Assembly (NCBI GenBank): GCA_964187785.1
Contig: OZ076409.1
Location: 11,472,001-11,536,000, forward strand
DNA: 64,000 nucleotides
Direction of reading: 5' to 3'
Source: Amphiscolops sp. MND2022
Lineage: Eukaryota
Position numbers and translations under genes: made by a program. The notes below the pieces were generated by a model. The model was not told the DNA's origin, did not search any database, and saw only the letters and a program-made list of their open reading frames with translations. Shown in pieces: positions 1,692 to 52,700 of this stretch (positions within the stretch are counted from its first letter, which is position 1; each line of letters starts with the position of its first letter).

Positions 1692-1898
1692 TGTAATACG
1701 GTTGATTCCGAATGACCTTCACCGAGCTTCAGTCTAGACTCTTTAGACAGCCTAACAAGTTGTTTACTAACAAACTTGAAACTATAGAATTACAATTTAT
1801 ATACATTTAGTATAAACTTTTGATACGAATCAGTCGTACTCAATACAGTTTCTATTTTATCATCTTGTCCTATCTTAACCTAGCTTAGAAATACAACA
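1692..1898 (+). repeat. 5' LTR of element 1
   Basis: TGTAATACGG...ATACAACA, direct repeat of 7251-7457. Confidence 0.97.
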
Positions 1899-1910
1899 TG
1901 GCGCAGTCAG
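1899..1910 (+). promoter_or_regulatory. Primer-binding site of element 1 (tRNA 3' end complement, probably tRNA-Ser type)
   Basis: TGGCGCAGTCAG directly after the LTR, complementary to a ...CUGCGCCA tRNA end. The tRNA identity is inferred. Confidence 0.8.
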
Positions 1911-1949
1911 CCAATTTTAACAAAAAAATTACAACGAACTTCTAACAAG

Positions 1950-4900
1950 ATGGCAGAACGAAACACAGTACCAAACCTAGAAGCAAAAGCCACCGACGGA
2001 AACCCGGTTTTCACACCGAAGCAATGGGTAGAGCGATTCCGGCAATTTTGCAAACGGGAACATAAAATAGATATCGCACCATTACTAAAAGGCGAAGGAA
2101 TTACGGAAGCCGACTGGACCGGAAAAGAACAAGCCGTACAAAAAGATTTCATATGGGGTGTGGGACCGGAAGCATTCCATCAGATAACAAGGGCCGAATA
2201 TAAAACGGAACCCGACTGTGTAAAAATAAAAGATCTAATCCGGTTATTTACCGAGTTCTACATGCCGAAAAGAAACACTTACCACAACCGAGGAGATTTT
2301 TTTGGGCGAAGCAGACCGAATATGAAACACCCGAAGAATTCCGGAGACGGCTAATCGAAATCGAAAAGTTTTGCAATTTCACTACAATTTCGGCTGAAGA
2401 ACTACTAATATCAAAATACATGACTGCAATCACCGATAAAAAGTTCCGGGACAAAAGAATGGAAGAAAAAACTCTCGAGATGAAGAAGATAATCGATCTA
2501 ATCAAACAAAATACATACGAAAAGAAAAATAAAAAGAATACAATACCAGAAGCTCTAATATCGACGAAAGAAAAACACATAATAAAAGAAGAGCCGATAC
2601 AAAGAATGGAAAGATTCGTAACAAGACCGAAAAATAAAAACTTCGGTAACCGACCGTGCAGATTTTGTAGTGCTCCAAACTGGACACCATTATACAAATG
2701 TCCCGCAACAGACGCGAACTGCAACAAGTGCGGAAAGAAAGGACACTACGCGAAAGCATGCAGACAGAAATTCAACAACAACCGAACAGTGAAAAGACTT
2801 ACCGAAGATGAATTGAACGAACCAAACGAATCATCATGTGAGTCAGAAGAAAGCATACACCACATAAAAGGAATAAAGAAAATCGAAGAGACGAAGAAAC
2901 TATACACGGCGAACGTGAAAATCAACGGGGTAATGAAAGAATTTATAGCTGACACTGGGTCTCCAATATCAATAATGCCTCCAGACAAACGAATAATGAA
3001 ACCAACCGAACTACAGAAAATATCTAACCGATACCAGGATGTCAACAAGAACGAAAAAAAATCCGGGGAAAAATTCCGGTAAACATCGAATACGAAAATA
3101 GCAAACAGAAAATGGAAATTTTGATGACCGAAAGAACCGATATCACACCTTTATTAAGTATGGACTGGATGAAAACTTTCAAACTAACTATCGGGAAAAT
3201 ACAAATGGCCGAAAACAACCAATCAGAAAGAGAGAAAATATTAGGAAAATTTCAAGACCTATTTTTTGAAAACAATGAAACAATAAAAGACACCGAAATA
3301 AATATCCAGCTCAAACCGGGACACTACCCGAATAAACAAAAAACAAGACCGGTACCACTGCATCTACGAGAAAATGTCGAAAAAGAATTGAAGAAATTAA
3401 TCCGAACCGGGCATCTAGAAAAAATCAACGATGTAGACAAGTCTGTTTTGTATCACCGGTAGTGATCACAGTGAAAAGTGACAAATTGGTAAAGATAGCA
3501 CTCGATTCACGAAAATTAAACGACAGCTGCATAAAAATGAGACCCCATATGCCGAACATGGAAGAAATGTTAAACCAAGTTTCGGTGGAAATCACGCGCG
3601 ACCGGACAGCACAATTATTTATATCAAAGATTGACTTAGACTACGCATACGGACAAATGAATCTATCAGAAGAGACATGCCGACAATGCGTATTCGCACT
3701 AACCGGAGGAAACTTCAGCGGATACCACCGATTTAAAAAAAGGTTTTACGGTCTCGCCGACATACCCACAATTTTCCAGGAGAAAACTGACCGAACACTT
3801 GAATATTGTACACCGGCATGGTTGGACGATATAATCATAGTAACACAATGAAGTAAACAAGATCACCAGAAGAAATTGTTTGACGTCTTGGATAAATAAG
3901 AAAAAACCGGATACCGGGCAAGTGAAAAGAAATCCAAATTCTTCATGAAGGAAACAAAATGGCTCGGACACGAAATAGACGAAAACGGAATAAAACCGAA
4001 CGAAAAGAAAGTGGAAGCAATATTAAAATTAAAATCACCGGAAAACACAAAAGACCTGAAATCATATCCCGGTGCTATACAATATATGGCAAAATTTCTA
4101 CCAAAACTTTCGGAACAAACAGACCGGCTGAGAAAACTATTGAAAAAAACGAACCGTGGACATGGGGACCGGAACAAGAGACGGAATTCAATCGAATAAA
4201 ACAAATGTTAACCGAAGGTCCATGTTTAGCACACTATGCGAAAGACAAAGACAACACGGTGACAACCGATGCCAGCGAAACCGGACTCGGCATAACATTA
4301 TGGCAAAAACAGGACGACGGAAATATAAAACCGATTGCATACGGAAGCAGACATCTAAATGATACCGAAAAAAATTACTCAATCGGTGAATTGGAATTAC
4401 TAGCAGTAGTTTGGGGGTTAGAAAAGTTCCAATTTCACATTTACGTATAGAAAGTGTATTTATACACAGACCACCAAGCACTGGAACCATTAATAAAACG
4501 AAACCGATGCAACAAACAATACAGTGCAAGATTAACTCGGTGGCTAGACCGACTGGCACATTTTAACACTGCAATACAACATATCGCGGGAAGCAATTTG
4601 AAATTCACGGACTACCTCAGTAGAAATCCGGTAGGGGGAGCCACACCGGAAGATAATTACGATGAGGAATATGTAATTAACATATTATCCGAACAAGCGA
4701 AACTGAACGCAAAATACGGACAATTATTCGCCGACCAAACAGATAACAGCAAACGCGTGACCGAAACAAAGAACGGCAGATCGGAAAGCAAAATTGAGCA
4801 ACAAAACAACCAATCACAAACGAGTAGAATATTCGAGAACAAAAACGGCGTGAACAAAATAAGCCGAAGCGAGAAAAACACATCCGGGCAGTCTGATAAT

Positions 4901-7086
4901 AGCGCGTCAAAATCAAGTTGCTCTTTGAAACACCGAAACACCATTCAAAAAAAGAATTTAAATCCGGAAATTACCGAAATGGATAGAGATAACTTTTACC
5001 ATTGGGGCGCAACAAGGGAAATCATGGAAATAATTCGGAGGAGAAATAAAAGCCCGGAGACACGCAGTCTTGTTGAGCTGAGGAACAATCTATCAAGGCC
5101 GGGAACGCTGAGAAGGAGATATGATCTGCACACACAACGGACAATATTCGCACCAACTCGTCCAAACAAACGTAGCCGAGAAGAAATCGCGGAGATAGAC
5201 GGGGAACTGTTGCAAAGTAGGAATCGACTCGGGGAAGGCTACCAACCATTAATCGAAGAAACAGGAGAGCCCGAGAATGCAGAAGAATGCGAAATCGAAC
5301 CCGAACAGCCGGAGACAGAGGAAGATAGCATAATCCTGAGAGGGGACAACTTGCCAATAGTGGACCTGAGCAAGTTCAACACAGAAGGAAAAGACGCCCA
5401 CTACATTCAGATAAATCATATTGTGGGAAAGTTATCCGGAAACAAAAAGATAACCGAAGACACAATGAAGAAAGCTGAATTCGAGTTCATGATGGACTTG
5501 AAGACCCTGATAGCGAGAACAGCCATTGACCCCGAACACACAAGAGTTAGGATCAGCATGAGACAGAAAGACAGAGAGGCAAATCCCGAAGGATACAAGC
5601 CAGTATTCGAAAAACTCTCCATTTCGACTTATATTTATGGACGACCAGATTGTAATTCCGGTGGATCTCCGAAGACGACTACTCGACATTTTACATTTCG
5701 GTCATGCCGGCCTGACGAAGATGACAGCCGAAGCCAAAATCTTTTGGTGGTCGAACATTACTCGGGTTATTGAGAATAAGGCCAAAAACTGCACCGCCTG
5801 CCTCGCTTCAGGTAAAAATTTAAAATATCAATTACCGAATAGTCACTACGGAAAATTGAAAATATTAACCGAACCGGGCCAAGAAATACAAATCGATTTT
5901 ACCGGAAAACTCCATAACAAAAAAATAAATGGAGACCTACAAATTTTGATAGCGATAGATCGTTTTAGTAAATGGCCTACGGTAAAAACTTGCAAAACCG
6001 CCGAAGCGAAAGAAGTTATAAATTTTCTAACAAATAACCTTAACTTATACGGGATACCGGAAAAAATCAAATCTGATAAAGGGGGAGCCTTTATCTCAAA
6101 AGAGTATAGAGAGTTTTGCAAAAGCCGAAATATAGAAACGGAATATTTACACCCCGGCTACATACGGGAAACGGAGCCGTCGAACGGGCGATACAAACTT
6201 TGAAAAACTTAATGCTAACCAACCTGGAAGAAGGAATCGAATTGAATGAAAGCATAAACCGGGCGCTCCGAGTAATGCGTTTTACAATACACACTGGACT
6301 AAAAAGAACGCCATTTGAGCTACATCAAGGTAGAAAGCCGAGAACCGAATTAACTAACAAAGTTAAAGACGGAAAAACGTATTTATCGGATTGTTCAGAA
6401 ATATATATTTCAGCACCAAATAAACCGAAGATCCCCATCTATGTGGGCCGGGATGCCGATGGTGAAATTACAAATCACATAATCATGGCAAAGACCAAGG
6501 CAGAAGAAAAACAGGCAAACGAAGGCCCAAAATCACCGAAGAAGAAAAGTTCGGATTGATAACCTTTTCAGTTTGTAGAAAAAAACCATAACAAAAAATC
6601 ACTGGAAGGGAGATTTCAAAAGAAAATACAAACCGCAATTGACGGAACCGAAAATACCGTAAAAACAGATACGGGAAAAATAATACACCGAAAGTTTGTT
6701 TCGTGACCACTGTTTCAGACCGAGAAGAAAAACCTGAGAGATACGGCATTAACTAATGCCGAAATCACACCGAAGAACCGACACTGCCTGAGAGGGCTGG
6801 ACGGAGAGTACGGCCGATGGGATGAGATACTGCGCGACATCCTGAACGGCAAACTCAAGATTGTCCAGAACCGGAAAGTCAGTGTATCGAAACAGAAGAT
6901 GAGGAGGATGATGATGACGAAGAAATGCCGGAAGAAACCAGTAGCCGAACATGCGACACGTCAGAACGAAATGGTCGGTACCAGCCGATACGAACCAACC
7001 CCGAGGAGGACGTAATCCAAATCCATACGGATGGCGACGAAATCCCACAGGGTGAGAACACTGATAATAATAATTTTTGGGGTTAA
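1950..7086 (+). pseudogene. Disrupted gag-pol polyprotein of element 1
   Basis: Two Cys knuckles (CRFC..., CNKCGKKGHYAKAC), protease DTGS, RT (LDSRKLN...WLDD), RNase H (TDASETGLG, ELELLAV), integrase HHCC and core (IDF...DRFSK...SDKG...AVERAIQT). Broken by several frameshifts and in-frame stops (3849, 3897, 4448, 6704). Confidence 0.93.
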
Positions 7087-7233
7087 AAATAGAAAAATGT
7101 TCACGTTGTTACAGGCTCAAACTGGATCACTCGAAAGGGAACACCAGTGCCGCAAATGACGCACAAGCCCGCTGACTTCATACCCGAAGATACAACCCCT
7201 CCAGGAACCTCAGCAGCAAACTAAAGAAAGCCC

Positions 7234-7250
7234 GGAGAGAGAGGGGGAAA
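7234..7250 (+). promoter_or_regulatory. Polypurine tract of element 1
   Basis: GGAGAGAGAGGGGGAAA abutting the 3' LTR. Confidence 0.9.
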
Positions 7251-7457
7251 TGTAATACGGTTGATTCCGAATGACCTTCACCGAGCTTCAGTCTAGACTC
7301 TTTAGACAGCCTAACAAGTTGTTTACTAACAAACTTGAAACTATAGAATTACAATTTATATACATTTAGTATAAACTTTTGATACGAATCAGTTGTACTC
7401 AATACAGTTTCTATTTTATCATCTTGTCTTATCTTAACCTAGCTTAGAAATACAACA
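7251..7457 (+). repeat. 3' LTR of element 1
   Basis: Direct repeat of 1692-1898, followed by TSD TACCT. Confidence 0.97.
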
Positions 7458-13415: not shown

Positions 13416-13970
13416 AATAGCAAAATGACATCAAAGTGTCAAAAAACTTCAAGTATCAAAATCACAAAAAAAATCGAAGCACTTCCGAAAAACCCAAACG
13501 ACCGAACTGGCGCGCCAGGTGCCCGCTAGCACAAGCCCCTGGCGCGCTAAAAGGGGGACCCTTTCGGATTTTTCAAAATTTATCGTTGCAAAACATCAAA
13601 AAATTGAAGGAGGGACACTTTGGGGAAGAAATTTTTTCGAAAAAAAGTCTCACAATGCCGAAAAAAAACTGAAAAGGGGGACCCTTTGGGATTTTTCAAC
13701 ATCCATTCTGTCGCCAAGCATCAAAAAAATTGAAGAGGGGGACCCTTTGAGGAAACAAATTTCGGAAAAAAATCTCACAATTCCGAAAAAAAACTGAAAG
13801 GAAAAGCAGGAAAAACCATTTTGGTTCACTTCGCTAGGCGAAATGGTTCAATTGGACACCATAATATTTCGTAGAACTTTTTTAGAACAATTTTTTTGGT
13901 CAGTTCGTGTGGATTGAAAAAAGCGTCACTATAATAGTCGCGTTTCACTTCATGAAGCGCCGACTAAAAA
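13416..13970 (-). mobile_element. HINE family A copy (hairpin end truncated)
   Basis: Internal repeats GGGGGACCCTTTGGGATTTTTCAACATCC. End AGTCGCG...GCGCCGACTAAAAA. Confidence 0.7.
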
Positions 13971-14325
13971 GTTCGAAGGCAAGCACAATTTAACGAAAAA
14001 TGAACAAATTTGTCTGACAGTGCCGAAAAACGTCGGGATTATGTTAGTTCACTGACTGAAGAATCAATGTTGGCTCGGTTCAAGCCCTCGCGTTCTGTTT
14101 GACGAACGGAATACAGCCCAATGCTAAATTCGAGCTCTGTTCACCATATCCAAACGTTATTTAAAACGATGGGAAAAAATTCGAAAGAGTTCAATATACA
14201 AGATTTGAAAAGTTCGACACTGATGAGATTCAAACCTTCACTTTCAAGGCAAAACGTGAATAAATTCAGACATAATGTCAATATTACAAATATAACACAT
14301 TTTTTTGCTGTAAACGTTATATAGG

Positions 14326-14880
14326 AACAAGATGGGAACGTCTAAAGTCGGCACTATATCTAAGGCCTAAAAAAGCGCAGTTTCATGAAAAACTCCTGTT
14401 TTCGAACCTCCGCCTCCCCTTCAGTAAAACGCAATATAGTTCGGATATAACGTCAAAAATTCGGATATAGCGCTTTACTCCGGATGTCACGTCAAAATTT
14501 AATAGTTGTATAGTTTAGAAAAAAATGCTTCTGGGTATATTTTCAGAAAAAAGCGAATTTTGAAACAGTCTCATAGTGTCAAAAAATTTGGAAGAGAAGA
14601 CCCTCTGGGCTTTTTGAAACTCCTAATCGTTGCAAAAGATCAAAAAAATTTAAATGACCCTTTGGAGAGAAAAAAACTCGAGAAAAAGTCGCACAGTGCC
14701 AAATAAAATTCAAAAAGGGACCCTATAGTCTCGTCCGGTTTTGTATCCTACGTTAAAAATGAAATAAATGAAAGGGGGCCCTTTGCTTTATTTTAGATGT
14801 GTTCCTGCTTGTCTGAGGAAAAAAACGGTCACTGGAATTGTCGGGCTTTATTCCTTAAAAGTAAATGTTCCAACTAAAAA
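14326..14880 (-). mobile_element. HINE family A copy (diverged)
   Basis: Starts AACAAGATGGGAACGTCTAAAGTCGGCAC, ends ...CCAACTAAAAA. Confidence 0.6.
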
Positions 14881-17745: not shown

Positions 17746-18386
17746 AACAAGCCGGGACCGGCCCAAGTCGGCGCCATATCCAAGGCTCAAAAATAGCAAA
17801 AAGACTTCCAAGTGTCAAGTACTCTTTTACAGTACTCGAAAATCGAAATTTTTTGAAAAAAAATTTCTCGAAAAAATTACATACTCAAAAAAATGGACCG
17901 AGTGGCCCGCTAAAGTCTCACAATGCCGAAAAACTGAAAGGGGGGACCCTTTGTGGTTTTTCAACATCCATTCTGTCGCAAAACATCAAAAAATTGAAGA
18001 AAACAAAAATTTTCATTTTCGGGAAAAAATCTCACAATGCCGAAAAAAACTGAAAGGGGGGACCCTTTGGGATTTTTCAACATCCATTCTGTCGCAATCA
18101 TCAAAAAAAATGCAGGGGGACCCTTTGGGGAAAAATTTTTTTTCGAAAAGTCCCGCAGTGCCGAAAAAAAATGAAAGGGGTGGAGTCTTTGGTCTCGCCC
18201 GGTATGGTATGTTACGCGGAAAAACAGGAAAAAAACCTTTTTGGTTCAGTTCGCTAGACCAAATAGTGCATTTTGATGCAATAATATTTTGTAGAACTTT
18301 TAGGAACTATTTTGGCCAGTTCGTGTGGATAGAAAAAAAAGTCACTATTATAGTCGCGTTTCACTTCATGAAGCGCCGACTAAAAA
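17746..18386 (-). mobile_element. HINE family A copy, complete
   Basis: AACAAGCCGGGACCGGCCCAAGTCGGCGCC ... AGTCGCGTTTCACTTCATGAAGCGCCGACTAAAAA, with an internal ~120-bp tandem unit. Confidence 0.75.
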
Positions 18387-19191
18387 TCGATGGTTACCTT
18401 TCGTCCTGTCACCTGTGGTATATCTATAATATACCGCACTAGCAGAGAGCCTCCAACCCAGAATAAGGACATTTTTCAATTACTGAATCCTTTGCTTTCA
18501 GTTGAACTGCGTATCCGACATTGTGCTTCTAGCTTCATTTTGTTTCAGCTCAAGTAACGGAGAGTGGTCAAAAATAGGACCATATCCATCTTTTTCGAAA
18601 GCAGTTTTGGCTATCGGAACGGCCCGTTTCAAATTTTTTCCGCCATGGCACATGGATTTCCATCCATGATTCATCCATGATTCATGGATTTCCATACATT
18701 GCCCATGTTATGGCCATGCCATGGCGAGCCATGAATCATGGTTGAATCATAGATGGCGGGTCATGGCGTGACAACCTGGGAATACTATTACAACCTAAAT
18801 GAGAGGAGTTCAGGTTTCCAGTTTTTGACCTTCCGCCTGATTGGAACGTTTGAGCACTGAAAATGAACGATTTTTTACCTTTTAGTACTGATTTGCGGCT
18901 GTATTAACTGAGAAACCCCAAGTACATTATACCTCATTTATGGGTAAGCGGAAAACCGATCGAAAACCCACTCGCAGAATGTTACGAAATTGTCGAATAA
19001 TTGCAGATTGCCTATCAGCTGTTAGCAACCAGCCAGAAACGCACTTGATGAAACTGATAATACTGGATTAATTTTCTTCAATTTATACTATTTTATATAA
19101 GCTATATGAAATTTATATAGCTTTTTAAATAGAAAAATTGCATGAAATGACTTACGTTTACTTTCTGAAGAGTAATATTGTTGTTTATGCT

Positions 19192-19394
19192 TGTGACCGA
19201 GGCCATAGCCTTGGCTAGAAAAAGAACATTGATGCTAACATAAATTGATAAACAGCTGTAAACATAAAGTAAAGTACCTGTCAGTAAGCTTTGTCGAAAC
19301 GACCTAAAGGTCGAACATTTGCAGCAAGTTGCCTTTAAAGTATATAGTTACTTAATTCACTACATTCGTTAGCAAACTCGTTTTCGCTATAACA
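19192..19394 (+). repeat. 5' LTR of element 2
   Basis: TGTGACCGAGG...CTATAACA. Confidence 0.97.
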
Positions 19395-21088
19395 TGGCGC
19401 TGCGAAACACTGATCCTGAAGACGGGAAACACAAAGATGGGAGTGCAACAATAACAGGTCTCGCCCCATACTGGAACGATCCACAAAAGAAGCCCAACAT
19501 CGAGTGGAAGAAATGGTGTGATCTCTTCGCTGTGGCGATGACAGCAAAATACTCAATTTCCATTGCAGAAGTATTGAGAACAGTCACCAATGAAACAGAA
19601 AGGAATAAAGCACTGCTAAACAATTTGGATAAATCAGTAGCCGAAAGAAAGTGTGTAAGTGTGCTTTACTTATCCTTGGGAACGGCTGCACGCAAAACTT
19701 TTTCTGACAAATATCCAGCAGTAAAAGTCGCGGAAATCACGTTAGAAGATCTGCTAAAGAATTGCAAGGATACCTTTGACACGAAGAGAAACCGGACTCT
19801 AGATAGAGTCAGATTCCTCTCACGAAAGCAAATGGCCTCAGAAACATTGGAGCAGTTCTGGCATTCCTTAAACGGCTTAGCATCGGAATGCGATTTCGGG
19901 GTACAAACAGAAAGCTTGGTCCACGATATCTTCATTCTAAATATGAAAAACTCGGCAGTCCAAGAAAAACTGTGCACAGAGCCAAAAACAAATCCAAAAG
20001 ACGCACTAGAATTCGCAATAGCATATGAAGAAGGCACACTTCGTCAAAAATCATATGGCGAAAACAAAATCACAATAAAAAGCGAACCAATATGTACAGT
20101 GGCCAAGAAGAAGGACTGCTTACGATGCGGAAAAGAAAATTTTTCAATAGAACATTTGAAAGTGTGCCCCGCAAAAGGAAAACAATGCAACAAGTGCGGA
20201 GTCATGGGCCACTTCGGCAGAGTGTGCAGGAGAGCACAAAAGCAACAGAACGCACAGAAGCAACCGCCGCGGCGGGTGAATTGGGTAGAAGAGGAATCAG
20301 AAAATGACGAAGACAAGAATGAAGATGAAGAACAATACGTTCTAGGCATCGACGGCAGCGGATCACCTCCATTCATGATGAAAGGGAAGATAAACAGAAA
20401 GAAGTTCTGCCTAATGATAGATTCGGGTTCCCCGGTAACGATCATCAATTACGAAGAACTACAAAAAATTCTACAATACGAAACACTATTCGTTCGTCCA
20501 TTACCACCTGATGAAAAGTACGTAGACTACAACAAAAAACCCGTCAACCTACTGGGATATATATTTTGCGAACTAGAAGTAGGCGGAAAATATATCCGAA
20601 AGGCAAGGATATTAGTAGCGAGACCGGGTGCAAAATCCATTGTCGGCAGAGATTGGCTGAATTACCTGCACTACGCCATCGAACCAAAAAAGGGGGGTAA
20701 GTGTAATGCAATTAACCTTGTAAATAATGTAAATAAAGTAGTGGTAAATAAATGGGCAAATGAAATGAAGCTTGAATTCCCAGACCTCTTCGAAAGAAGA
20801 GGCAAAATAAAACAACACAAAATACATGCCAGACTCCATAAAGATACAATAGTAAAACAGCAGAAGGGCCGCCGCGTACCCATACAACTACAAGACGCAG
20901 TCAACAAAGAGGTAAGCAGGCTACTACAAGAAGGCCACATTGTGAAAGTACAAGAAATAAAAGAAGATGTTTTTCTACAACCAACGGTAATCACCGTTAA
21001 GAAAGATCGCAGTGTAAAAATTGCATTGGATGCAAGGGAATTAAACAAAAACGTTATAAGACAAATATCCCATGCCGAATTTAGATAA
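19394..21088 (+). CDS. gag: Gag-protease-RT N-terminus (5' part of the gag-pol ORF)
   Basis: 564-aa ORF with two CCHC knuckles (CLRC...H...C; CNKCGVMGHFGRVC), protease IDSGS...IVGRDWL and the RT start (IALDARELN). A frameshift at ~21059 links it to the downstream ORF. Confidence 0.92.
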   Translation: MALRNTDPEDGKHKDGSATITGLAPYWNDPQKKPNIEWKKWCDLFAVAMTAKYSISIAEVLRTVTNETERNKALLNNLDKSVAERKCVSVLYLSLGTAARKTFSDKYPAVKVAEITLEDLLKNCKDTFDTKRNRTLDRVRFLSRKQMASETLEQFWHSLNGLASECDFGVQTESLVHDIFILNMKNSAVQEKLCTEPKTNPKDALEFAIAYEEGTLRQKSYGENKITIKSEPICTVAKKKDCLRCGKENFSIEHLKVCPAKGKQCNKCGVMGHFGRVCRRAQKQQNAQKQPPRRVNWVEEESENDEDKNEDEEQYVLGIDGSGSPPFMMKGKINRKKFCLMIDSGSPVTIINYEELQKILQYETLFVRPLPPDEKYVDYNKKPVNLLGYIFCELEVGGKYIRKARILVARPGAKSIVGRDWLNYLHYAIEPKKGGKCNAINLVNNVNKVVVNKWANEMKLEFPDLFERRGKIKQHKIHARLHKDTIVKQQKGRRVPIQLQDAVNKEVSRLLQEGHIVKVQEIKEDVFLQPTVITVKKDRSVKIALDARELNKNVIRQISHAEFR

Positions 21089-24000
21089 CCTCATGGATAT
21101 GATTGCAGAACACGTAGAACAAGGCCCAGGAGAAACATTCTTCACGACGTTAGACATGACGTATGCATACGGACAGGTGGAATTGAGTGAAGAAACATCA
21201 AGACATTGCAACTTCCGAATCATTGGGGGAAAAGCAACCGGAATCTACAGATTCGTGACAGGTTTCTATGGACTCACAACGATGCCAACAGAATTCCAAA
21301 AAATAATGGATTTAACACTCGCAGGTATAACGAATACCTTTGTATTCATAGACGACATCCTAGTTGTCACACACGGGACAGAAGATGAACACATCAAAAA
21401 AGTAAAAGAAGTAATGCAAAGACTGGATAACTCGAACATTAATCTAAAATTGGGCAAATGCAACTTCGCGGCGAAAAATATTGAATGGGTCGGGTACAAC
21501 CTTTCTCAACAAGGGGTAGCACCCATAAATAGTAAAGTGCAAGGAATCTCAGAACGCCTTCGACCCACCAATTTAAAACAACTCAGATCCTTTTTAGGGG
21601 CTGTAAACCAGTTCAACAAATTCATCCCAGATTTAGCAAAATTATGCTTCCCATTCAGAACTTTACTGAAGAAAGATAACGAATGGAACTGGAATACAGA
21701 ACAAGAAAACGCGTTCACAGCAGTAAATGAAGCAATAAAGAAAGCAACAACACTAAATCATTTCAAAAGAAATTGCCCCCTTCGCATAATTTGCGACGCC
21801 AGTAAGTCAGGACTCGGAGCAGTGCTACAACAAGAAGAAAACGGTACTTGGAAACCAATTTCATTTGCATCAAGATTTCTTACAGAACTCGAATCAAAGT
21901 ATTCGATAAACGAATTAGAACTACTCGCCATAGTATGGTCAGTAGAATATTTCAGGAGCTACGTTTATGGAGTCCCATTTAAAATAATTTCAGACCATAA
22001 AGCACTAGCAACAGTATTAAAGGGCCAAAAAGCAAACAAAACATATTCTAGCAGATTAACACGGTGGGTAGACCGACTTCTACCCTACGATTTTGAAGTA
22101 ATACACGGCCCAGGAAGAACACTAGGTATTGCTGATTATTTATCTCGAAATCCATCACCACTAATTGAAAATTCAGTAAAATCTAGTACATTATGGGATG
22201 AATGGTTCACTGTTAATATTGTTTCAGAAATGAAGAATTCAATACTGGCAAATGAGAAGCCAAGCCGCGGCGGCCGACAACCAATCAAAAGCGAGAGCGA
22301 TGCGAGCGAGAAAACAACAAGCAAAGGTGCGAACGACGTCACGCAATTATCGATTAAACAAATAATTAGAGACGCATTCACAGATCAACAGCAATCAGAA
22401 ATGGCACGCAAGCGAGACGCAAGCGAAACGCGAAAATTACATGAACTCGCAATCAAACCGCCAGTCAAACGACCAATAACATTAGCCCTAATTGATAAAA
22501 ATTCCAGCACGCCGCTCAAATCGAGCATACAGCGAATCGGAGAGAACATGCTAGCAGCAACTTACGATTGCGACCCATTGTTACAATCAATTATAGCGCT
22601 ACTACAAAACTTCGATCAAAAGAAGTTTAACAAACTTCCAAAAATCTGGCAGCAACGTTATAAAGAACTACGCCTCGATGAAAACAACTTCATCTACATT
22701 GACGAACGTTTAGTCATCCCAGAAGAACTGAGACGACCAATATTCAGAAGCTTACATTGGGGACACCCGGGAAGGGACACAATGCTCCAAGCCGTCGCCG
22801 ACATATGGTGGCCGCGGATCCACCGCGAAATCGTGCTCCTGGCGCAATCATGCAGTCGCTGCCAAAAAGCAGGTAAAAATTTAAAAACAATACAAAAACT
22901 ATCAGAATACGGGAAACTACCCGCGGCGGAAACTCATAATGACGAAATAGCTATAGATTTTGCAGGACCATTTAAATTAGCTCCGAAAGCAAAGAAATAT
23001 TTATTGGTATCAATCGATCACAAAACGAATTGGCCAAACGCCGCGTTCGTAAAGAAACCGACCGCAGAAACTGTAGTAAATTTATTAAACGCGCACATAG
23101 CCCAATTTGGCATACCAAAAAGAATAAGAACCGACCCCGCAACTATATTCCGCGGCGAAACATTTAAACAATTTTGCAGCGATCACTTCATTAAACATAT
23201 CGAATGCCCAATCCGCGACCACCGCGGAAACGGAAAAATAGAACGCTTAATTAGAACACTTAACGAGAGGTTAAGAGCAGATAAAACAATTATCACAGAA
23301 CGCGGAAACACAGGTCTAGCACGATTACTATTCGCTCTTAGAACGGCCGCGGCAGCCAATAAAACTAGTCCATTTGAACAGGTATTTGGTAGAAAACCAA
23401 ATACCATCAAAGAAATAATAACAGAAAAACCGAAAAACTGTTTAGAAAATGAAGAAACACTACAACTGTCCCCAGAAGACTTTCCCAAAGACGACGACTC
23501 AACCATCTTCCTGAGAGACAGGACGAAAAATACAAAACTAGAGGGACAATTCAAAAAACGACACGGAAGCATAGTGGCAGAATCAAATCACACAATAACG
23601 CTGCAGAACAATCGAGGACGCCAAGTAATCTCGAAAAGAGATATTGCAAAACAGAAAAGCACATCATACAGCCCCAAAACAAGAAACCAACAAAACAAAG
23701 GGGGAAACAGCCATTCGCTGGAACGGAAAATTGCAGCACTCAAAGATGCTGAGACAAGGGAGGAGATGGAACTAAACAAACCACTAAAGGCATTCATAAA
23801 GAGAAAAGAAAAACAAACCGAAACTAGGACAAAATCCCCCAGAAAACAAGCACGACCGAGAAAATCACTCGCAGGACTACCAGAAAAGAAAAGTGAACAA
23901 AAACAAAACGAAATCCTCGACAGCTCGTCAGACGAAGAAGAAAACACTATGTGGCAAGAAACCACAACCAAACAAGATACAACAAACAAACCCGAAGAAA

Positions 24001-24239
24001 CAACCGAAGAAAAACAGGAGCAACCAGAGACAAGCAGCAACAATTCCAGACAAAGTCAACGCACAAAACGAAAACCAAACTGGTTCGGTCAAAATGTCAT
24101 GGTGACGAAGATAGACACGAAAGACAACGAAGACAAAAACAACGCACAAACCAACAAGGAAATCGAACAAGAACTCGAAGCAATCCCCGACTTCGAAGCA
24201 ATGACGCAAGAGGAAATTGATCACTGGGTCAACAACTAA
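21060..24239 (+). CDS. pol: Pol: RT, RNase H, integrase, C-terminal tail
   Basis: Uninterrupted 1055-aa ORF from 21072, with the frame open from DKYP at 21060. Motifs: TLDMTYAY, FIDD, CDASKSGLG, ELELLAI, HHCC (HWGH...CSRC), DDE core (IDFAG, TDPA, GKIERLIRT). Confidence 0.95.
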   Translation, partial: DKYPMPNLDNLMDMIAEHVEQGPGETFFTTLDMTYAYGQVELSEETSRHCNFRIIGGKATGIYRFVTGFYGLTTMPTEFQKIMDLTLAGITNTFVFIDDILVVTHGTEDEHIKKVKEVMQRLDNSNINLKLGKCNFAAKNIEWVGYNLSQQGVAPINSKVQGISERLRPTNLKQLRSFLGAVNQFNKFIPDLAKLCFPFRTLLKKDNEWNWNTEQENAFTAVNEAIKKATTLNHFKRNCPLRIICDASKSGLGAVLQQEENGTWKPISFASRFLTELESKYSINELELLAIVWSVEYFRSYVYGVPFKIISDHKALATVLKGQKANKTYSSRLTRWVDRLLPYDFEVIHGPGRTLGIADYLSRNPSPLIENSVKSSTLWDEWFTVNIVSEMKNSILANEKPSRGGRQPIKSESDASEKTTSKGANDVTQLSIKQIIRDAFTDQQQSEMARKRDASETRKLHELAIKPPVKRPITLALIDKNSSTPLKSSIQRIGENMLAATYDCDPLLQSIIALLQNFDQKKFNKLPKIWQQRYKELRLDENNFIYIDERLVIPEELRRPIFRSLHWGHPGRDTMLQAVADIWWPRIHREIVLLAQSCSRCQKAGKNLKTIQKLSEYGKLPAAETHNDEIAIDFAGPFKLAPKAKKYLLVSIDHKTNWPNAAFVKKPTAETVVNLLNAHIAQFGIPKRIRTDPATIFRGETFKQFCSDHFIKHIECPIRDHRGNGKIERLIRTLNERLRADKTIITERGNTGLARLLFALRTAAAANKTSPFEQVFGRKPNTIKEIITEKPKNCLENEETLQLSPEDFPKDDDSTIFLRDRTKNTKLEGQFKKRHGSIVAESNHTITLQNNRGRQVISKRDIAKQKSTSYSPKTRNQQNKGGNSHSLERKIAALKDAETREEMELNKPLKAFIKRKEKQTETRTKSPRKQARPRKSLAGLPEKKSEQKQNEILDSSSDEEENTMWQETTTKQDTTNKPEETTEEKQEQPETSSNNSRQSQRTKRKPNWFGQNVMVTKIDTKDNEDKNNAQTNKEIEQELEAIPDFEAMTQEEIDHWVNN

Positions 24240-24371
24240 AGAAGAAGGGAAGAACACCTGAACAAAAAAAAACCAAAAACTAAAACCATTAAACTTCATA
24301 ACATTTGAGTTATATTACGTATTTTAAATTTGTCTTGTACTAACTTAACCTCTATCCCGTAGTGGGGGAGA

Positions 24372-24574
24372 TGTGACCGAGGCCATAGCCTTGGCTAGAA
24401 AAAGAACATTGATGCTAACATAAATTGATAAACAGCTGTAAACATAAAGTAAAGTACCTGTCAGTAAGCTTTGTCGAAACGACCTAAAGGTCGAACATTT
24501 GCAGCAAGTTGCCTTTACAGTATACAGTTACTTAATTCACTACATTCGTTAGCAAACTCGTTTTCGCTATAACA
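24372..24574 (+). repeat. 3' LTR of element 2
   Basis: Direct repeat of 19192-19394. Confidence 0.97.
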
Positions 24575-24701
24575 ATGCTGCAGTTCCATCACAAAATTAG
24601 CAATATACTGGCTGATAAAATTTACTGCAACTTGCAACGAGATTTCCGTCTTGTATTTTCAACCAGTTGTTTTCGGTGAGTTTTCATAGATTCTTTTTCA
24701 G

Positions 24702-34044: not shown

Positions 34045-37000
34045 CATTGCTCTTTAAATTTTGAAATAATTAGTTGTGAGTGCACAAATTGGTTGAAATC
34101 ACACATGATATTCTGGTCTCCCTACTTCCCGAAGGTCCAGTCCCAAGTTACTTCTGACGAGTGAAATCGTCAACCACCCTTATAATTGGCACCCCCTAAC
34201 TATGATCGAATTTGGCATCGATTGACCCAATGTAACTCTATAAACTCCCTCTTAATGACACTCATGTATTGCCTCAAACTATTATCCCATCAGGTGGTAG
34301 GTTGTATAGCCGAACGAGCTTCAACACGAAAGAACTTAAAGCCGAAACTCGACAGCCGACATCTACAATTACGTAATCAATCCCAGTGGTGAGCAAAATT
34401 GAAAATGTATGTATTCGGAATAGAGCCACGCTTTGGTAGCCGTTCGTATAACAATTGCTCATTTCGTCGACCAATCATATCTGAGATCTTTATATTCGTT
34501 CTTGTTAAATCTCGTGGGTCATACGAACGGCTACCATTCCGTCAGACTCATTCAGTGCCCAAGGCGAATAGCGACATTATCGATGATTCCAACATATCAA
34601 TGTGAACATAAAGTTTTATTCTCCCTATTCTAAATAACATAACAGGACCGTGATTGAAAAAATAAAACATAAAAGAGATCAGGTGTCAAAACGCTGCAAG
34701 CTGCAGAGCCTCCTTACAGTGTCAGTAACGGTCGCATAAAAACATTCTGAAAGCATCGGCAAGTGGACTAGGTAGGCGTGTTCAATAAATAATTATGGGT
34801 AAAAAAATATGATAAATAAAATCAATTTATTTTTACACTCGAATGAATAAAAATTATTTTGGGACCTATTAAAAATGATTCTTGAGATAACTAAAACTAA
34901 GAGCGTTTAATTTAACATATCATCAGCCAATTAATTTCGAGAATTGTTAACGATATTGAAAACGTGTCATAGATCACCGCCCAGCGAACTTTGAGTCGAA
35001 AATTTTTTTGATGGCTAATATTAAACACCCCTGGGGGCTAGGATTTATAAACCAGAGCCGCATATGCGGTAAAGGAGTCGGCTTAAGTCTTTTTCCTTCT
35101 GACTCGCTTTCGTTCGAATCGTATGAACAGTTTGTGAGAAAATCGAAAAAATCGAAAAATGACTTTTTTTTGGCCATTTTTGGGCTAAATTTGGCTATGT
35201 TTCTCACATCCCAGCCATACGAATTTAATGAAATTGCACATATAGGACTCTAATATGGTGTAGAATAACTGTAGAAAATTTCGTTCGAATCGTATGGACA
35301 GTTTTTGAGAAAATCGAAAAAAGTCGAAAAATGGCTGTTTTTTGGCCATTTTTGGGCTAATTTTGGCTATGTTTCTCACATCCCAGCCATACGATTTTGA
35401 TGCCATTGCACATATAGGACTCTAATATGGTGTAGAATAACTGTAGAAAATTTCGTTCGAATCGTATGAACAGTTTGAGAAAATCGAAAAAATCGAAAAA
35501 TGACTTTTTTTTGGCCATTTTTGGGCTAAATTTGGCTGTTTCTCACATCCCAGCCATACGAATTTAATGAAATTGCACATATAGGACTCTAATATGGTGT
35601 AGAATAACTGTAGAAAATTTCGTTCGAATCGTATGAACAGTTTTTGAGAAAATCGAAAAAAGTCGAAAAATGGCTGTTTTTTGGCCATTTTTGGGCTAAT
35701 TTTGGCTATGTTTCTCACATCCCAGCCATACGATTTTGATGTCATTGCACATATAGGACTCTTAGATGGTGTAGAATAACTGTAGAAAATTTCGTTCGAA
35801 TCGTATGGACAGTTTTTGAGAAAATCGAAAAAAGTCGAAAAATGGCTGTTTTTTGGTCATTTTTGGGCTAATTTTGGCTATGTTTCTCACATCCAGGCCA
35901 TTGCTCTTTAAATTTTGAAATAATTAGTTGTGAGTGCACAAATTGGTTGAAATCACACATGATATTCTGGTCTCCCTACTTCCCGAAGGTCCAGTCCCAA
36001 GTTACTTCTGACGAGTGAAATCGTCAACCACCCTTATAATTGGCACCCCCTAACTATGATCGAATTTGGCATCGATTGACCCAATGTAACTCTATAAACT
36101 CCCTCTTAATGACACTCATGTATTGCCTCAAACTATTATCCCATCAGGTGGTAGGTTGTATAGCCGAACGAGCTTCAACACGAAAGAACTTAAAGCCGAA
36201 ACTCGACAGCCGACATCTACAATTACGTAATCAATCCCAGTGGTGAGCAAAATTGAAAATGTATGTATTCGGAATAGAGCCACGCTTTGGTAGCCGTTCG
36301 TATAACAATTGCTCATTTCGTCGACCAATCATATCTGAGATCTTTATATTCGTTCTTGTTAAATCTCGTGGGTCATACGAACGGCTACCATTCCGTCAGA
36401 CTCATTCAGTGCCCAAGGCGAATAGCGACATTATCGATGATTCCAACATATCAATGTGAACATAAAGTTTTATTCTCCCTATTCTAAATAACATAACAGG
36501 ACCGTGATTGAAAAAATAAAACATAAAAGAGATCAGGTGTCAAAACGCTGCAAGCTGCAGAGCCTCCTTACAGTGTCAGTAACGGTCGCATAAAAACATT
36601 CTGAAAGCATCGGCAAGTGGACTAGGTAGGCGTGTTCAATAAATAATTATGGGTAAAAAAATATGATAAATAAAATCAATTTATTTTTACACTCGAATGA
36701 ATAAAAATTATTTTTGGGACCTATTAAAAATGATTCTTGAGATAACTAAAACTAAGAGCGTTTAATTTAACATATCATCAGCCAATTAATTTCGAGAATT
36801 GTTAACGATATTGAAAACGTGTCATAGATCACCGCCCAGCGAACTTTGAGTCGAAAATTTTTTTGATGGCTAATATTAAACACCCCTGGGGGCTAGGATT
36901 TATAAACCAGAGTCGCATATGCGGTAAAGGAGTCGGCTTAAGTCTTTCCTTCTGACTCGCTTTCGTTCGAATCGTATGAACAGTTTGTGAGAAAATCGAA

Positions 37001-37754
37001 AAAATCGAAAAATGACTTTTTTTTGGCCATTTTTGGGCTAAATTTGGCTATGTTTCTCACATCCCAGCCATACGAATTTAATGAAATTGCACATATAGGA
37101 CTCTAATATGGTGTAGAATAACTGTAGAAAATTTCGTTCGAATCGTATGGACAGTTTTTGAGAAAATCGAAAAAAGTCGAAAAATGGCTGTTTTTTGGCC
37201 ATTTTTGGGCTAATTTTGGCTATGTTTCTCACATCCCAGCCATACGATTTTGATGCCATTGCACATATAGGACTCTAATATGGTGTAGAATAACTGTAGA
37301 AAATTTCGTTCGAATCGTATGAACAGTTTGAGAAAATCGAAAAAATCGAAAAATGACTTTTTTTTGGCCATTTTTGGGCTAAATTTGGCTGTTTCTCACA
37401 TCCCAGCCATACGAATTTAATGAAATTGCACATATAGGACTCTAATATGGTGTAGAATAACTGTAGAAAATTTCGTTCGAATCGTATGGACAGTTTTTGA
37501 GAAAATCGAAAAAAGTCGAAAAATGGCTGTTTTTTGGCCATTTTTGGGCTAATTTTGGCTATGTTTCTCACATCCCAGCCATACGATTTTGATGTCATTG
37601 CACATATAGGACTCTAAGATGGTGTAGAATAACTGTAGAAAATTTCGTTCGAATCGTATGGACAGTTTTTGAGAAAATCGAAAAAAGTCGAAAAATGGCT
37701 GTTTTTTGGTCATTTTTGGGCTAATTTTGGCTATGTTTCTCACATCCAGGCCAT
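34045..37754. repeat. Near-identical tandem duplication, ~1854-bp unit
   Basis: 34045-35901 is repeated at 35899-37754. Identical ORF translations at offset 1854, with CAT microhomology at the junction. Confidence 0.95.
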
Positions 37755-37933
37755 ACGATTTTGATGCCTTTGCACACGCAGGGGCCCCTTTGGGTGTAGA
37801 ATGACTGTGCAAAATTTCGTGAAAATCGTATGGACAGTTTTTGAGAAATTTGAAATTTTCATGAAAAGGTCGGGAGAAAAAAAAACAGCACGATTGCATA
37901 AGTAGTCGAAAATTTTTTCCGACTCCTAAAAAA
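36904..37933 (-). mobile_element. HINE-like family B with central ~170-bp satellite array (truncated copy at 35049-35901)
   Basis: Hairpin CGCATATGCG plus subTIR AGGAGTCGG at left. AGTCG-AAAATTTTTTC-CGACTCCT-AAAAA at right. About 5 tandem 167-172-bp units between. Confidence 0.7.
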
Positions 37934-49700: not shown

Positions 49701-52700
49701 GTTTTATAATGAGAAATTCAACAACAATTTTGTACAATTGAATGTTGTGCATGAAATGCAACATACTTCTTTCTTCTTATTCAGACGAATCAAGGCATTG
49801 CCGAGAGCATTGAACATCCTGCCGTCGTAGACAGCTGGGTCTTCGGAGTTCATGTTGAATCCCTTCTCCAGCACTTCCACTGCATCTTTGTACAACTCCA
49901 GCTGGTTCAGCACGAAGCCCTTGTGCACCAAGTTGAACGCTTCGTCATGACCTTCGTCCAACCTCTGCAAACGGTCAATGATGACAACTTACCATCACAG
50001 AAACCAACTCAGGAGCTGGGCTGTCATATTTAACTGTTGGAAACGTTTTTGACATTTTAACACGTTAATTACGAATTTTAACATGTAAAAAGTTGAAAAA
50101 AATGTGTTAAAATCCAACTATAATGTTCAATGTTGAAGCCTCAACGGTTCAGCTGGTGGAACAGAAATGCCATCTTCCCAGCCTTCTATAACCCCAGAAG
50201 AACTTCTCTATTTTCCACATCTGAGGTCCATTGTCGAGATTTAGTTATTTAATGCAATTTGCCCGTTCGGTACCACCAGGCATATTTTCCTTGAAATGGG
50301 ACCGCCCGGGTTTTTCTCGAGGCATATCAAATATTTCAAAATAGCATAATCTGTCATCTGTTAAGAACATGTGAGAATGAGCTGTTAAAAACATGTGAAA
50401 GACATCGTTGGTAATAACAGTTTGTTACACAGAGGCGAAGCCGTGCTTCGCAAACACTTGCGAACTTTTGAAGAAAACCAAATAAGCAATATCATACGGA
50501 GAGAACCAAGGGTAAAAAGACATTAAAATTTCATCAATTTTACAGCGCCTAAAATACCCGAAGGGATACGCATAAGTTTCGAAAACCATTCTTGCCCAAC
50601 TGGAAACAGCAAAAAACAAAAATTTAAAAAGAAACAGAAAATTGAGGAATTTTTTTCGAAATTTTTCGAAAATACTTTTGATGGTCTCCGGTAAGTCGCA
50701 TAGTGCCGAAAACCTTTAGGAGTCCTTAACTCTCGCAAAACGTTTCGTTTCCGGCAAAAATTGAGGAGGGGCTTCGGTGAAACAAATTTTTAAAAGTCGC
50801 ATAGAAAAACACCGGCCTTTTTTTTAAAAAAATCGGATATAGCGTGCTGTACCTGAGAAAACCTAATTTTAAAACCAAAAATTATTCCTTTTGAAAAATC
50901 TCACAATGCCGAAAACGGTGAAAGAGGGGCTCTTTTGAGATTTTTTAATATCCATTCTGTTGCAAAATTTCTACAAAATTGAAGGGGGACTCTTTGGAGT
51001 CTTTAAAAAATTTTCGAAAAAAAAACAAAAAATGAGAAATTTTAATGACAGTCTCATAGTGCCGAAAAATCTGGAAAAAGGGACCCTTTGGGACTTTTTA
51101 ACATTCGTTCTGTTGCAAGATATCAAACAAAAAGAAGGGTGGACCCTTTGTAGACATCAAAAATTTTTGAAAAAAAAAACAAAAAATGAGAAGGGAGTCT
51201 CAAAAAAACTTTCGAAAAAAAACAAAAATGAGAATTTTGAACAGTCTCATAGTGCCGAAAATTCTGAAAAAAAGGGGGACCCTTTGGGATTTTTTAACAT
51301 TCTTTCTGTTGCAAAATATCAAAAAATTGAAAGGACTCTTTGGGGACATTCGAAAAATTTCGAAAAAAAAGTCTCACAAAGCCGAAAAGTCTCATAGTGC
51401 CGAAAAAAGTGAGAAACTTGTGCTTCAGAATACTTGTCAAAAAATTAGCGCATACCCACGGGTTCGAACACGAAAGCTCTGGGTTGAAAAGCAAGCATCT
51501 TACCACTAGACCACGAACGCGTGAAACGTGCGAGTTGCCGCGTGAAATCAGAGAGTTGTCGCGCGGAAAAAAAAGCACCCGCACTTTCCCATAACACTTG
51601 CTTATCGCAAGTGTAATTAACATGCCAGCTTTGCTCAGGAGATTCATCAGTTTCCTTGCAGGGTTCAAATATTGCCCAATTTTTGAACAGCTGATTTCGA
51701 AGTAGCCAGTTTATGATAAAATACCAATAAAGCATCTATTATCTAAGTGATTTCAATCGGGCTTCCTCTTGGAATAAGTCTTCACTGAATGATTGGAACG
51801 TGGTCAGTGGTACCAAACAGGTCAAAGTAGTCTCTGCAATCTTAAGCATATAATTGAAAAAAAACACTGAATTATATCTTTGTTATTAAAAACAAAATCT
51901 TGGTTTTAAAACAAAGCAGTGTATTACGCTAAAAAAATATTTGTAGTATATATTAATATAATTATTATATTAAATTTCGAAATTCTATTAACTTATCATC
52001 CATCGTGTTTGTAAAACTTATTGTAATAAGTTCTCCTTGACTGAAGTCGTGAGAAGAGTTGGGAAATATATTCAACCAAAGACTTCCAAGAGGCAATGAT
52101 GAACCTTCTGTATTTGATAAGATTTGCTATAGTGTAAAGGTCATAAATTTTATCATATGCACAGGATATTACTGATTCCTTCGGATATAACGTCAAAAAT
52201 TCGGACATAGCGTGCTGGGACAAATGAGACCACTTTTTCCGAAACTCCGCTTTCTCCTGAGGATTTACATCGCAATTTACTTCGGATATAACATCGAAAT
52301 TCGGATATAGGTCAATATTTTTGACCCTCCGCTTCCTCAGAAAAACACAATTTACTTCGGATATAACGTTAACCTTAAGTTGGCCAGGAAAAATCTGGTT
52401 CCATCCAAAAAACGGGTGCTTCAACTTTAAACCGCAATATCTCCTGAACTATACAAGTCCGACAAACGATTTATACAGCGTTCGAAAGAGGAGCATTGGG
52501 ACTTTCAAATCAATTAATAAACTGCTATGCTTGGGGCCCGCTAGCGCGGGCCCCTTGCGTGCAAAGTTTTTTGCGCTAAGTTCTCCGCTGGCGTGCGGCT
52601 TCGCCGCACTGGCTCCGAACTTTGCGCCAAAACTTTGCACGCGTCGTGTCTCTGCTTGCTTTTCAGCATGTTTCAAAACATGCTGGGGCCGCTTTGACCC

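Follow-up and report, generated by a model that had tools for sequence, protein, structure and literature searches.

The 64,000-nt stretch of contig OZ076409.1 of Amphiscolops sp. MND2022 studied here (hereafter the window) carries a Ty3/gypsy long terminal repeat (LTR) retrotransposon, element 2, in which nearly all of pol probably forms a facultative intron. Its optional removal would give a Gag-protease mRNA and hence an excess of Gag, by analogy with Drosophila copia. The splice signals are real and exceed what chance would produce. The donor is very probably a selected site for U1, and in the element's own family it is likely joined to position 24363; optional removal of the intron for the sake of Gag excess is the reading that we favor, with somewhat less confidence.

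All the signals named in the original prediction were found: the donor GTAAGT at 20697-20702, the branch point TACTAAC at 24338-24344, and a pyrimidine tract with a TAG acceptor at 24360-24362, followed by TGGGGGAGA and the 3′ LTR. Reading by eye across the predicted junction gives K-K-G-V-G-E-M-stop, as had been claimed, with the TGA at 24374-24376. With codons numbered from the ATG at 19394, the donor interrupts codon 435 after its first base, 11 codons beyond the protease match. The hexamer GTAAGT is not rare by itself, with three occurrences in the element against 0.4-0.8 expected. When GT dinucleotides were ranked by their pairing energy with the U1 5′ end (an 11-mer), the donor at 20697 came first among 177 in the element and first among 6695 on both strands of the window.

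At the other end, a perfect branch point accompanies 3 of the 2970 YAG sites in the window, and the other two belong to the LTRs of a second retrotransposon, element 1. The acceptor ending at 24362 is the only one of the 2970 that combines a perfect branch point with at least 70% pyrimidines, a cut-off chosen after the site had been viewed; the site itself scores 0.73 (11 of 15 C or T). The 3′ untranslated region (UTR) has 132 nt, in which base composition predicts 0.019 occurrences of TACTAAC. Folding of the donor and acceptor regions disclosed no unusual structure. A second, weaker phase-1 donor-like site, CAG/GTAAAA (22870-22880; the slash marks the exon-intron boundary throughout), lies just past the integrase zinc finger, where the protein reads G-K-N-L-K, and a matching CAG/GTAAAAAT occurs in element 1 at 5809-5819. 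The shared CAG/GTAAAAAT could be due to codon bias on a conserved peptide, or it could be a second donor.

How widely is the donor shared among relatives? A phase-1 donor N/GTRAGT forces the codons NGT-RAG-TNN, so that the protein must show G/S/C/R, then E/K, then F/L/S/Y/C/W. From 606 collected proteins, 159 were usable; their representatives at 85% identity (65) led to a tree of 64 rows based on the protease and the start of reverse transcriptase (RT), the linker being excluded. The tree contains a clade of 33 rows that includes the element's own family (support 100/99), and protease identity across this donor-keeping clade goes down to about 45%. At linker positions 15-21 a loose footprint, [GS][EKQ], is present in all 33 clade rows against 8.7 expected from shuffling, and the strict one, [GSRC][EK][FLSYCW], in 27 of 33 against 2.2. 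The 31 rows outside the clade show the loose footprint three times and the strict one never. Counted by family (clusters at 70% protease identity), the strict footprint is found in 11/19 within the clade and 0/32 outside it. As read from these proteins, the trait marks a sub-clade and not all such gypsy elements, since the 31 more distant gypsy rows lack the strict footprint.

Within the clade the second footprint residue is E in 20 rows, K in 12 and Q in one, and at the third position C, S, F, Y or L fills 28 of 33 rows, against a background of 20%. The adjoining columns have entropies of 2.3-3.5 bits. Charge swaps between E and K together with a mixture of Cys, Ser and Phe fit a donor and not a constraint on the protein. 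In upstream control windows the strict motif occurred in 3/57, and the footprint that a phase-0 donor would leave (V-S/R) was tried without enrichment (2/19).

The donor bases themselves could be read from copies frameshifted just 5′ of the site, which translate it in another frame, so that two frames together fix the bases. From 48 short-tailed proteins we retained 13 fits of at least nine residues, short fits ending on a stop in P0283 and P0177, and P0048, P0545, P0099 and P0573, read by hand or after further comparison; the remainder were in-frame truncations or chance fits of 3-4 residues and were discarded. The own family reads GGG/GTAAGT in 10 copies and GGG/GTAAR in one. In other families we obtained GAG/GTAAGT (P0553), TGG/GTGAGT (P0048), AGG/GTAAR (P0545) and AAG/GTAAAC (P0495 and P0021); P0177 and P0099 are weaker fits in which GT is present. 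Direct DNA is given by two metagenome contigs of one distant family: L001, at 32% identity, has AAG/GTCAGT, and the more decayed L002 has AAG/GTCAAT. In all, GT is kept in 11/11 own-family and 9/10 other read-outs, although GGT makes up only 13 of the 74 Gly codons in the element and 2 of 16 in Gly-Lys/Glu pairs. This is good, if indirect, evidence that it is the nucleotides of the donor that the clade has conserved.

If the intron is used as we propose, transcription from the 5′ LTR would give one RNA, of which a share would lose 3,666 nt by the joining of 20696 to 24363, and with them RT, RNase H and integrase. The short mRNA would encode a 438-residue Gag-protease ending in the 3′ LTR, to which exon 2 adds four residues; because its stop codon is in the last exon, junction-dependent decay should not affect it. 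The unspliced RNA would serve both as genome and as message for the full polyprotein. By analogy with copia, the two RNAs together would supply the Gag excess needed for particle assembly without frameshifting. The purine tract lies 3′ of the acceptor and so remains in the short RNA, which could therefore also be reverse-transcribed into an element of 1,717 nt.

Several points weigh against this reading. The junction of 20696 with 24363 is predicted from sequence alone. The test named in the original prediction, conservation of the signals among family copies, came out in favor of the donor, and across the clade; it speaks for the donor half only, the acceptor being known from the window copy. 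Signals so strong would need a brake to spare the unspliced genome, and none was identified. The arrangement is not general, for element 1 lacks a donor of this kind downstream of its protease. The strict pattern fails in 6 of the 33 clade rows and, in the narrower window, in 8 of the 19 families; the shuffling expectations ignore shared ancestry, and the linker window was picked after the alignment had been seen. In P0573, read by hand, AAGT is retained and the G of GT is lost, and the donor of L001 is only fifth of the 60 GT in its contig. The donors of P0495, P0021, P0099 and L002 are weaker, with A at +5. All four of them have the consensus exon end AAG, and the weak and strong halves of a donor usually compensate each other, which fits AAG together with A at +5. 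Finally, when 29 genomic proteins were sampled from the own family and the relatives closest to it, none ended in the predicted spliced tail, and among them there was thus no sign of a spliced copy made by reverse transcription. This absence is at most mild evidence against splicing, because copia likewise has no genomic spliced copy, according to the part of the source available to us (10.1101/2023.05.27.542554).

Other sequences were also searched for the acceptor. None of 382 proteins reads through so as to expose it, and scans of viral contigs with the RT-RNase H piece and with alignment A1 gave no relative. The metagenome scan yielded only L001 and L002, both short and both ending before the 3′ end of the element. 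Three short matches to bacterial proteins from the prokaryote scan (L003-L005) were dropped, and none of the 11 viral loci with the pattern of branch point, AG and purine tract (L006-L016) encodes a relative.

Among the protein copies, two of a sister family, P0571 and P0600, lie on different contigs and lose homology exactly at the donor codon. They share an unrelated tail of 15 residues that a frameshift does not explain, and the residue that comes after the donor codon would suit a phase-1 joint. It is possible that both are reverse-transcribed spliced copies; a deletion or an insertion would look alike. Two further candidates were set aside: the tail of P0368 is a shifted frame of the linker, and P0211 diverges past the donor triplet and not at it. 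In a broader scenario, which we consider doubtful, the whole clade independently invented the pol-removing splice of copia, with the donor concealed in the linker between protease and RT and the acceptor placed directly on the purine tract; the spliced RNA, which would retain both LTR ends as well as the primer site and purine tract, would then give Gag-protease mini-elements of about 1.7 kb, P0571 and P0600 being such copies.

The donor could instead be spliced to a nearer or different acceptor, either in a short intron with early polyadenylation, as in EVD and BARE1, or at a site in the LTR, while 24362 serves otherwise. Conservation has been shown for the donor alone, plant copia elements do have short introns at the protease (PMC5580714, as far as the text available to us goes), and element 1 carries a perfect branch point inside its LTR. 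We nevertheless find this improbable: no other YAG in element 2 exceeds 5/7 branch-point matches, and its A-rich pol region is devoid of pyrimidine tracts.

Another explanation to which we assign a low probability is that U1 bound at the donor blocks premature polyadenylation within the A-rich pol, while the acceptor defines the last exon in aid of a weak poly(A) signal in the LTR, or that the spliced RNA is mainly regulatory, with little Gag-protease mRNA made. Both U1 protection against polyadenylation and definition of last exons are well known in general. The AT skew of +0.3 to +0.4 across pol would suit such a role, as would the LTR, in which a search for AATAAA returned CATAAA alone. This explanation, however, fails to say why the donor comes immediately downstream of an intact protease and why its phase leads to a stop after four codons of exon 2; when a single transcript holds a top-ranked donor and a top-ranked acceptor, splicing between them is to be expected.

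Gag-protease could also come from ribosomal slippage at the A6G6 run that immediately precedes the donor, the splice signals then being incidental. The run contains A-AAA-AAG, which we take to be a slippery-type heptamer, and 10 of 29 sampled family proteins, from three sub-lineages, are shifted by one base there and stop 9-10 residues on (P0010, P0262, P0279, P0281, P0525, P0579, P0583, P0584, P0588 and P0595). Such copies would make only Gag-protease even from unspliced RNA. Their shifts are indels of the homopolymer at the DNA level, for which homopolymer error, replication slippage and sampling bias are all candidates, and the sample favors short proteins. Slippage is very unlikely as the source of Gag: the run is missing in most other donor-keeping families, no stable structure lies 3′ of it (z = +0.68), and a minority shift out of frame would not yield Gag excess.

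Least credible of all is that the tripeptide is kept for the protein, as context for protease/RT cleavage, and that the splice-like sequences arose by chance: the motif does lie only a few residues upstream of an N-(S/T)-I-like stretch, a possible cleavage site, and GTAAGT does recur in the element, but the spacing to that stretch varies, E/K swaps reverse the charge, the chemically mixed third residue is restricted to codons starting with T, 20/21 read-outs have T as the last base of the Gly/Ser codon (in the exception the middle base is altered), and the window-wide ranks of donor and acceptor would remain a coincidence.

The original prediction described element 2 as a single-ORF element (open reading frame, ORF). 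This is correct for the family, which has one gag-pol ORF in the order Gag-PR-RT-RH-IN (protease, PR; RNase H, RH; integrase, IN) with no recoding break. It does not apply to the window copy, which is broken early in RT and consists of two overlapping frames, 19373-21088 and 21060-24239. From 31 identifiers examined, 16 proteins cover the spot of the break, and 15 of them read through it (12 of the own family and three relatives); the sole exception is the protein of the window itself. Cluster sizes of 37, 8 and 5 point to dozens of family copies in the host. Sister families have intact ORFs of 1,565-1,618 amino acids with all domains. Because the break lies inside the predicted intron, the window copy could still yield the short product.

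The features of element 2 are listed in Table 1. Since its Pfam domains follow the order PR-RT-RNase H-IN and the closest solved match of its pol is Ty3-G Gag-Pol (E 1.3e-63), it is a Ty3/gypsy LTR retrotransposon, and it has no env. The order of Ty1/copia, integrase before RT, is not the one found here; element 2 may work like copia, yet it is no copia element. The two differences between its LTRs indicate a young insertion. Two Cys-His knuckles were read by eye in Gag. The protease match to PF13975 covers residues 330-423 of P0003 with E 0.0036, which is under the curated cut-off. The first ATG of the ORF (19394-19396) takes its A from the end of the 5′ LTR and its TG from the primer site, and a start M-A-L-R is also common among relatives. 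The putative primer site may resemble tRNA-Ser; a search for tRNA genes in the window found none.

Table 1. Coordinates of element 2 and its parts in the window
Feature	Position	Strand	Remarks
Left target-site duplication, ATGCT	19187-19191		5 bp
LTR retrotransposon (element 2)	19192-24574	+	5,383 nt
5′ LTR	19192-19394	+	203 nt; differs from 3′ LTR at 2 positions
Predicted exon 1, coding part: Gag and protease	19394-20696	+	434 codons + 1 base; P0003
Primer-binding-site-like stretch	19395-19408	+	begins with TGG
Aspartic protease domain, complete, 5′ of donor	20381-20662	+	PF13975; DSGS motif
A6G6 run	20686-20697	+	last base is intron base 1
Phase-1 5′ splice site, GGG/GTAAGTGT	20694-20704	+	intron from 20697
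Predicted facultative intron	20697-24362	+	3,666 nt; RT, RNase H, integrase, 3′ UTR
Frame break private to the window copy	21055-21088	+	early RT
Remainder of pol	21060-24239	+	RT PF00078; RNase H PF17917/PF17919; integrase PF17921 and PF00665; acidic tail
Branch point, TACTAAC	24338-24344	+	branch A 24343, 19 nt 5′ of acceptor G
Pyrimidine tract and TAG acceptor	24345-24362	+	tract 24345-24359; TAG 24360-24362
Polypurine tract, TGGGGGAGA	24363-24371	+	predicted start of exon 2; retained after splicing
3′ LTR	24372-24574	+	predicted spliced-frame stop, TGA, at 24374-24376
Right target-site duplication, ATGCT	24575-24579		

Element 1 (1692-7457), also of the gypsy type, is decayed. Its LTRs measure 208 nt, its target duplication is 5 bp long, and a long insert, in frame, separates RNase H from integrase. 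Element 1 is a distant relative of the single-frame type, with 28-49% identity to element 2 in matched pieces. Its best donor lies at the end of pol (7052, phase 1), with an acceptor-like site 63 nt on (7114), past which an open frame of 36 codons precedes the purine tract. Both of its LTRs (1765-1787 and 7324-7346) contain TACTAAC with a TAG 16 nt later, the pyrimidine fraction being only 0.4; this may be an acceptor within the LTR.

Elsewhere in the window, about 1,854 nt are duplicated in tandem at 34045-37855 in nearly identical form, and an array of ~172-nt repeats is part of this sequence; the duplication may be recent or an assembly artefact. On the minus strand, 57175-59511 holds an acidic open frame of 778 residues with many D-x-D-x-D-G repeats, which we take to be of calcium-binding type; a Pfam search of this frame gave no match, and it is probably a large host exon. 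Dispersed repeat units of about 100 nt around GGGGGACCCTTTGGG occur at 13585-14648, 17928-18169, 50895-51366 and 54696-54897.

The original prediction also called element 2 Mag-like. Elements of the Mag lineage are described as about 5 kb long, with short LTRs, mostly 5-bp target duplications, one or two ORFs and Ser or Leu primer sites (PMC3286476, text and Table 1 as available to us). Element 2 agrees in size (5,383 nt), LTR length (203 nt), 5-bp duplication and absence of env, and its placement there is one by structural traits; its look-alikes in the atlas include K02A2.6-like clusters.

Like the family of element 2, Drosophila copia has a single ORF; as predicted for element 2, it has one long facultative intron covering nearly all of pol, and a 2.1-kb spliced RNA results. 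The spliced product of copia includes the protease. About 2,950 nt of pol are spliced out to give this Gag RNA (PMC3735527; PMC5580714; 10.1101/2023.05.27.542554), whereas frameshifting is the usual route in most gypsy elements (PMC3735527; 10.1101/2023.05.27.542554). Copia belongs to another superfamily, with integrase before RT, so that the arrangement in element 2 would be an independent invention. The two also differ in that the acceptor of element 2 adjoins the polypurine tract and its stop lies in the LTR, and in that splicing was shown by RNA for copia and is predicted from the DNA for element 2.

In plants, EVD/ATCOPIA93 and barley BARE1 likewise obtain a Gag mRNA from a single ORF by splicing near the protease, at positions conserved across families; their introns, however, are short, and EVD drops the protease and ends early (PMC5580714). 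In the Ty3/gypsy elements of Arabidopsis, the same study detected no conserved splicing of this kind. Copia elements with spliced Gag forms and one gypsy element with a possible frameshift (10.1101/2024.04.02.587720), as well as two sunflower elements with short Gag forms (PMC7730604), have been reported. A 2025 review (PMC12786077), in its accessible sections, mentions both frameshifting and a short Gag isoform, and its examples are all of the copia type.

The original prediction took this splicing to be undescribed for the lineage, and in the open-licence literature we found no report of a spliced Gag-protease RNA in Mag-like or similar animal single-ORF gypsy elements. Splicing that separates pol from gag nevertheless has gypsy precedents. 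In rice CRR an intron removes rt only, leaving two ORFs, and in legume Ogre the intron lies between ORFs; both are of plant lineages (PMC3735527). Tor elements splice env (PMC4402516). Among animal gypsy elements, Cer1 of C. elegans lacks a stop between gag and pol, and its spliced cerv mRNA skips pol; the product of this mRNA is a five-exon export regulator, CERV, built from pieces of Gag and a 3′ ORF (PMC10309623), while in element 2 the predicted exon 2 would add only four residues and the predicted product is Gag-protease.

Gypsy elements with a single ORF and without a recoding signal are numerous, and they pose the question of how Gag comes to exceed Pol. With the three-residue footprint, donors of this kind can be screened for in protein sequences alone. 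If our reading is true, element 2 and its relatives would have converged, in another superfamily and through one exact junction, on the solution used by copia.

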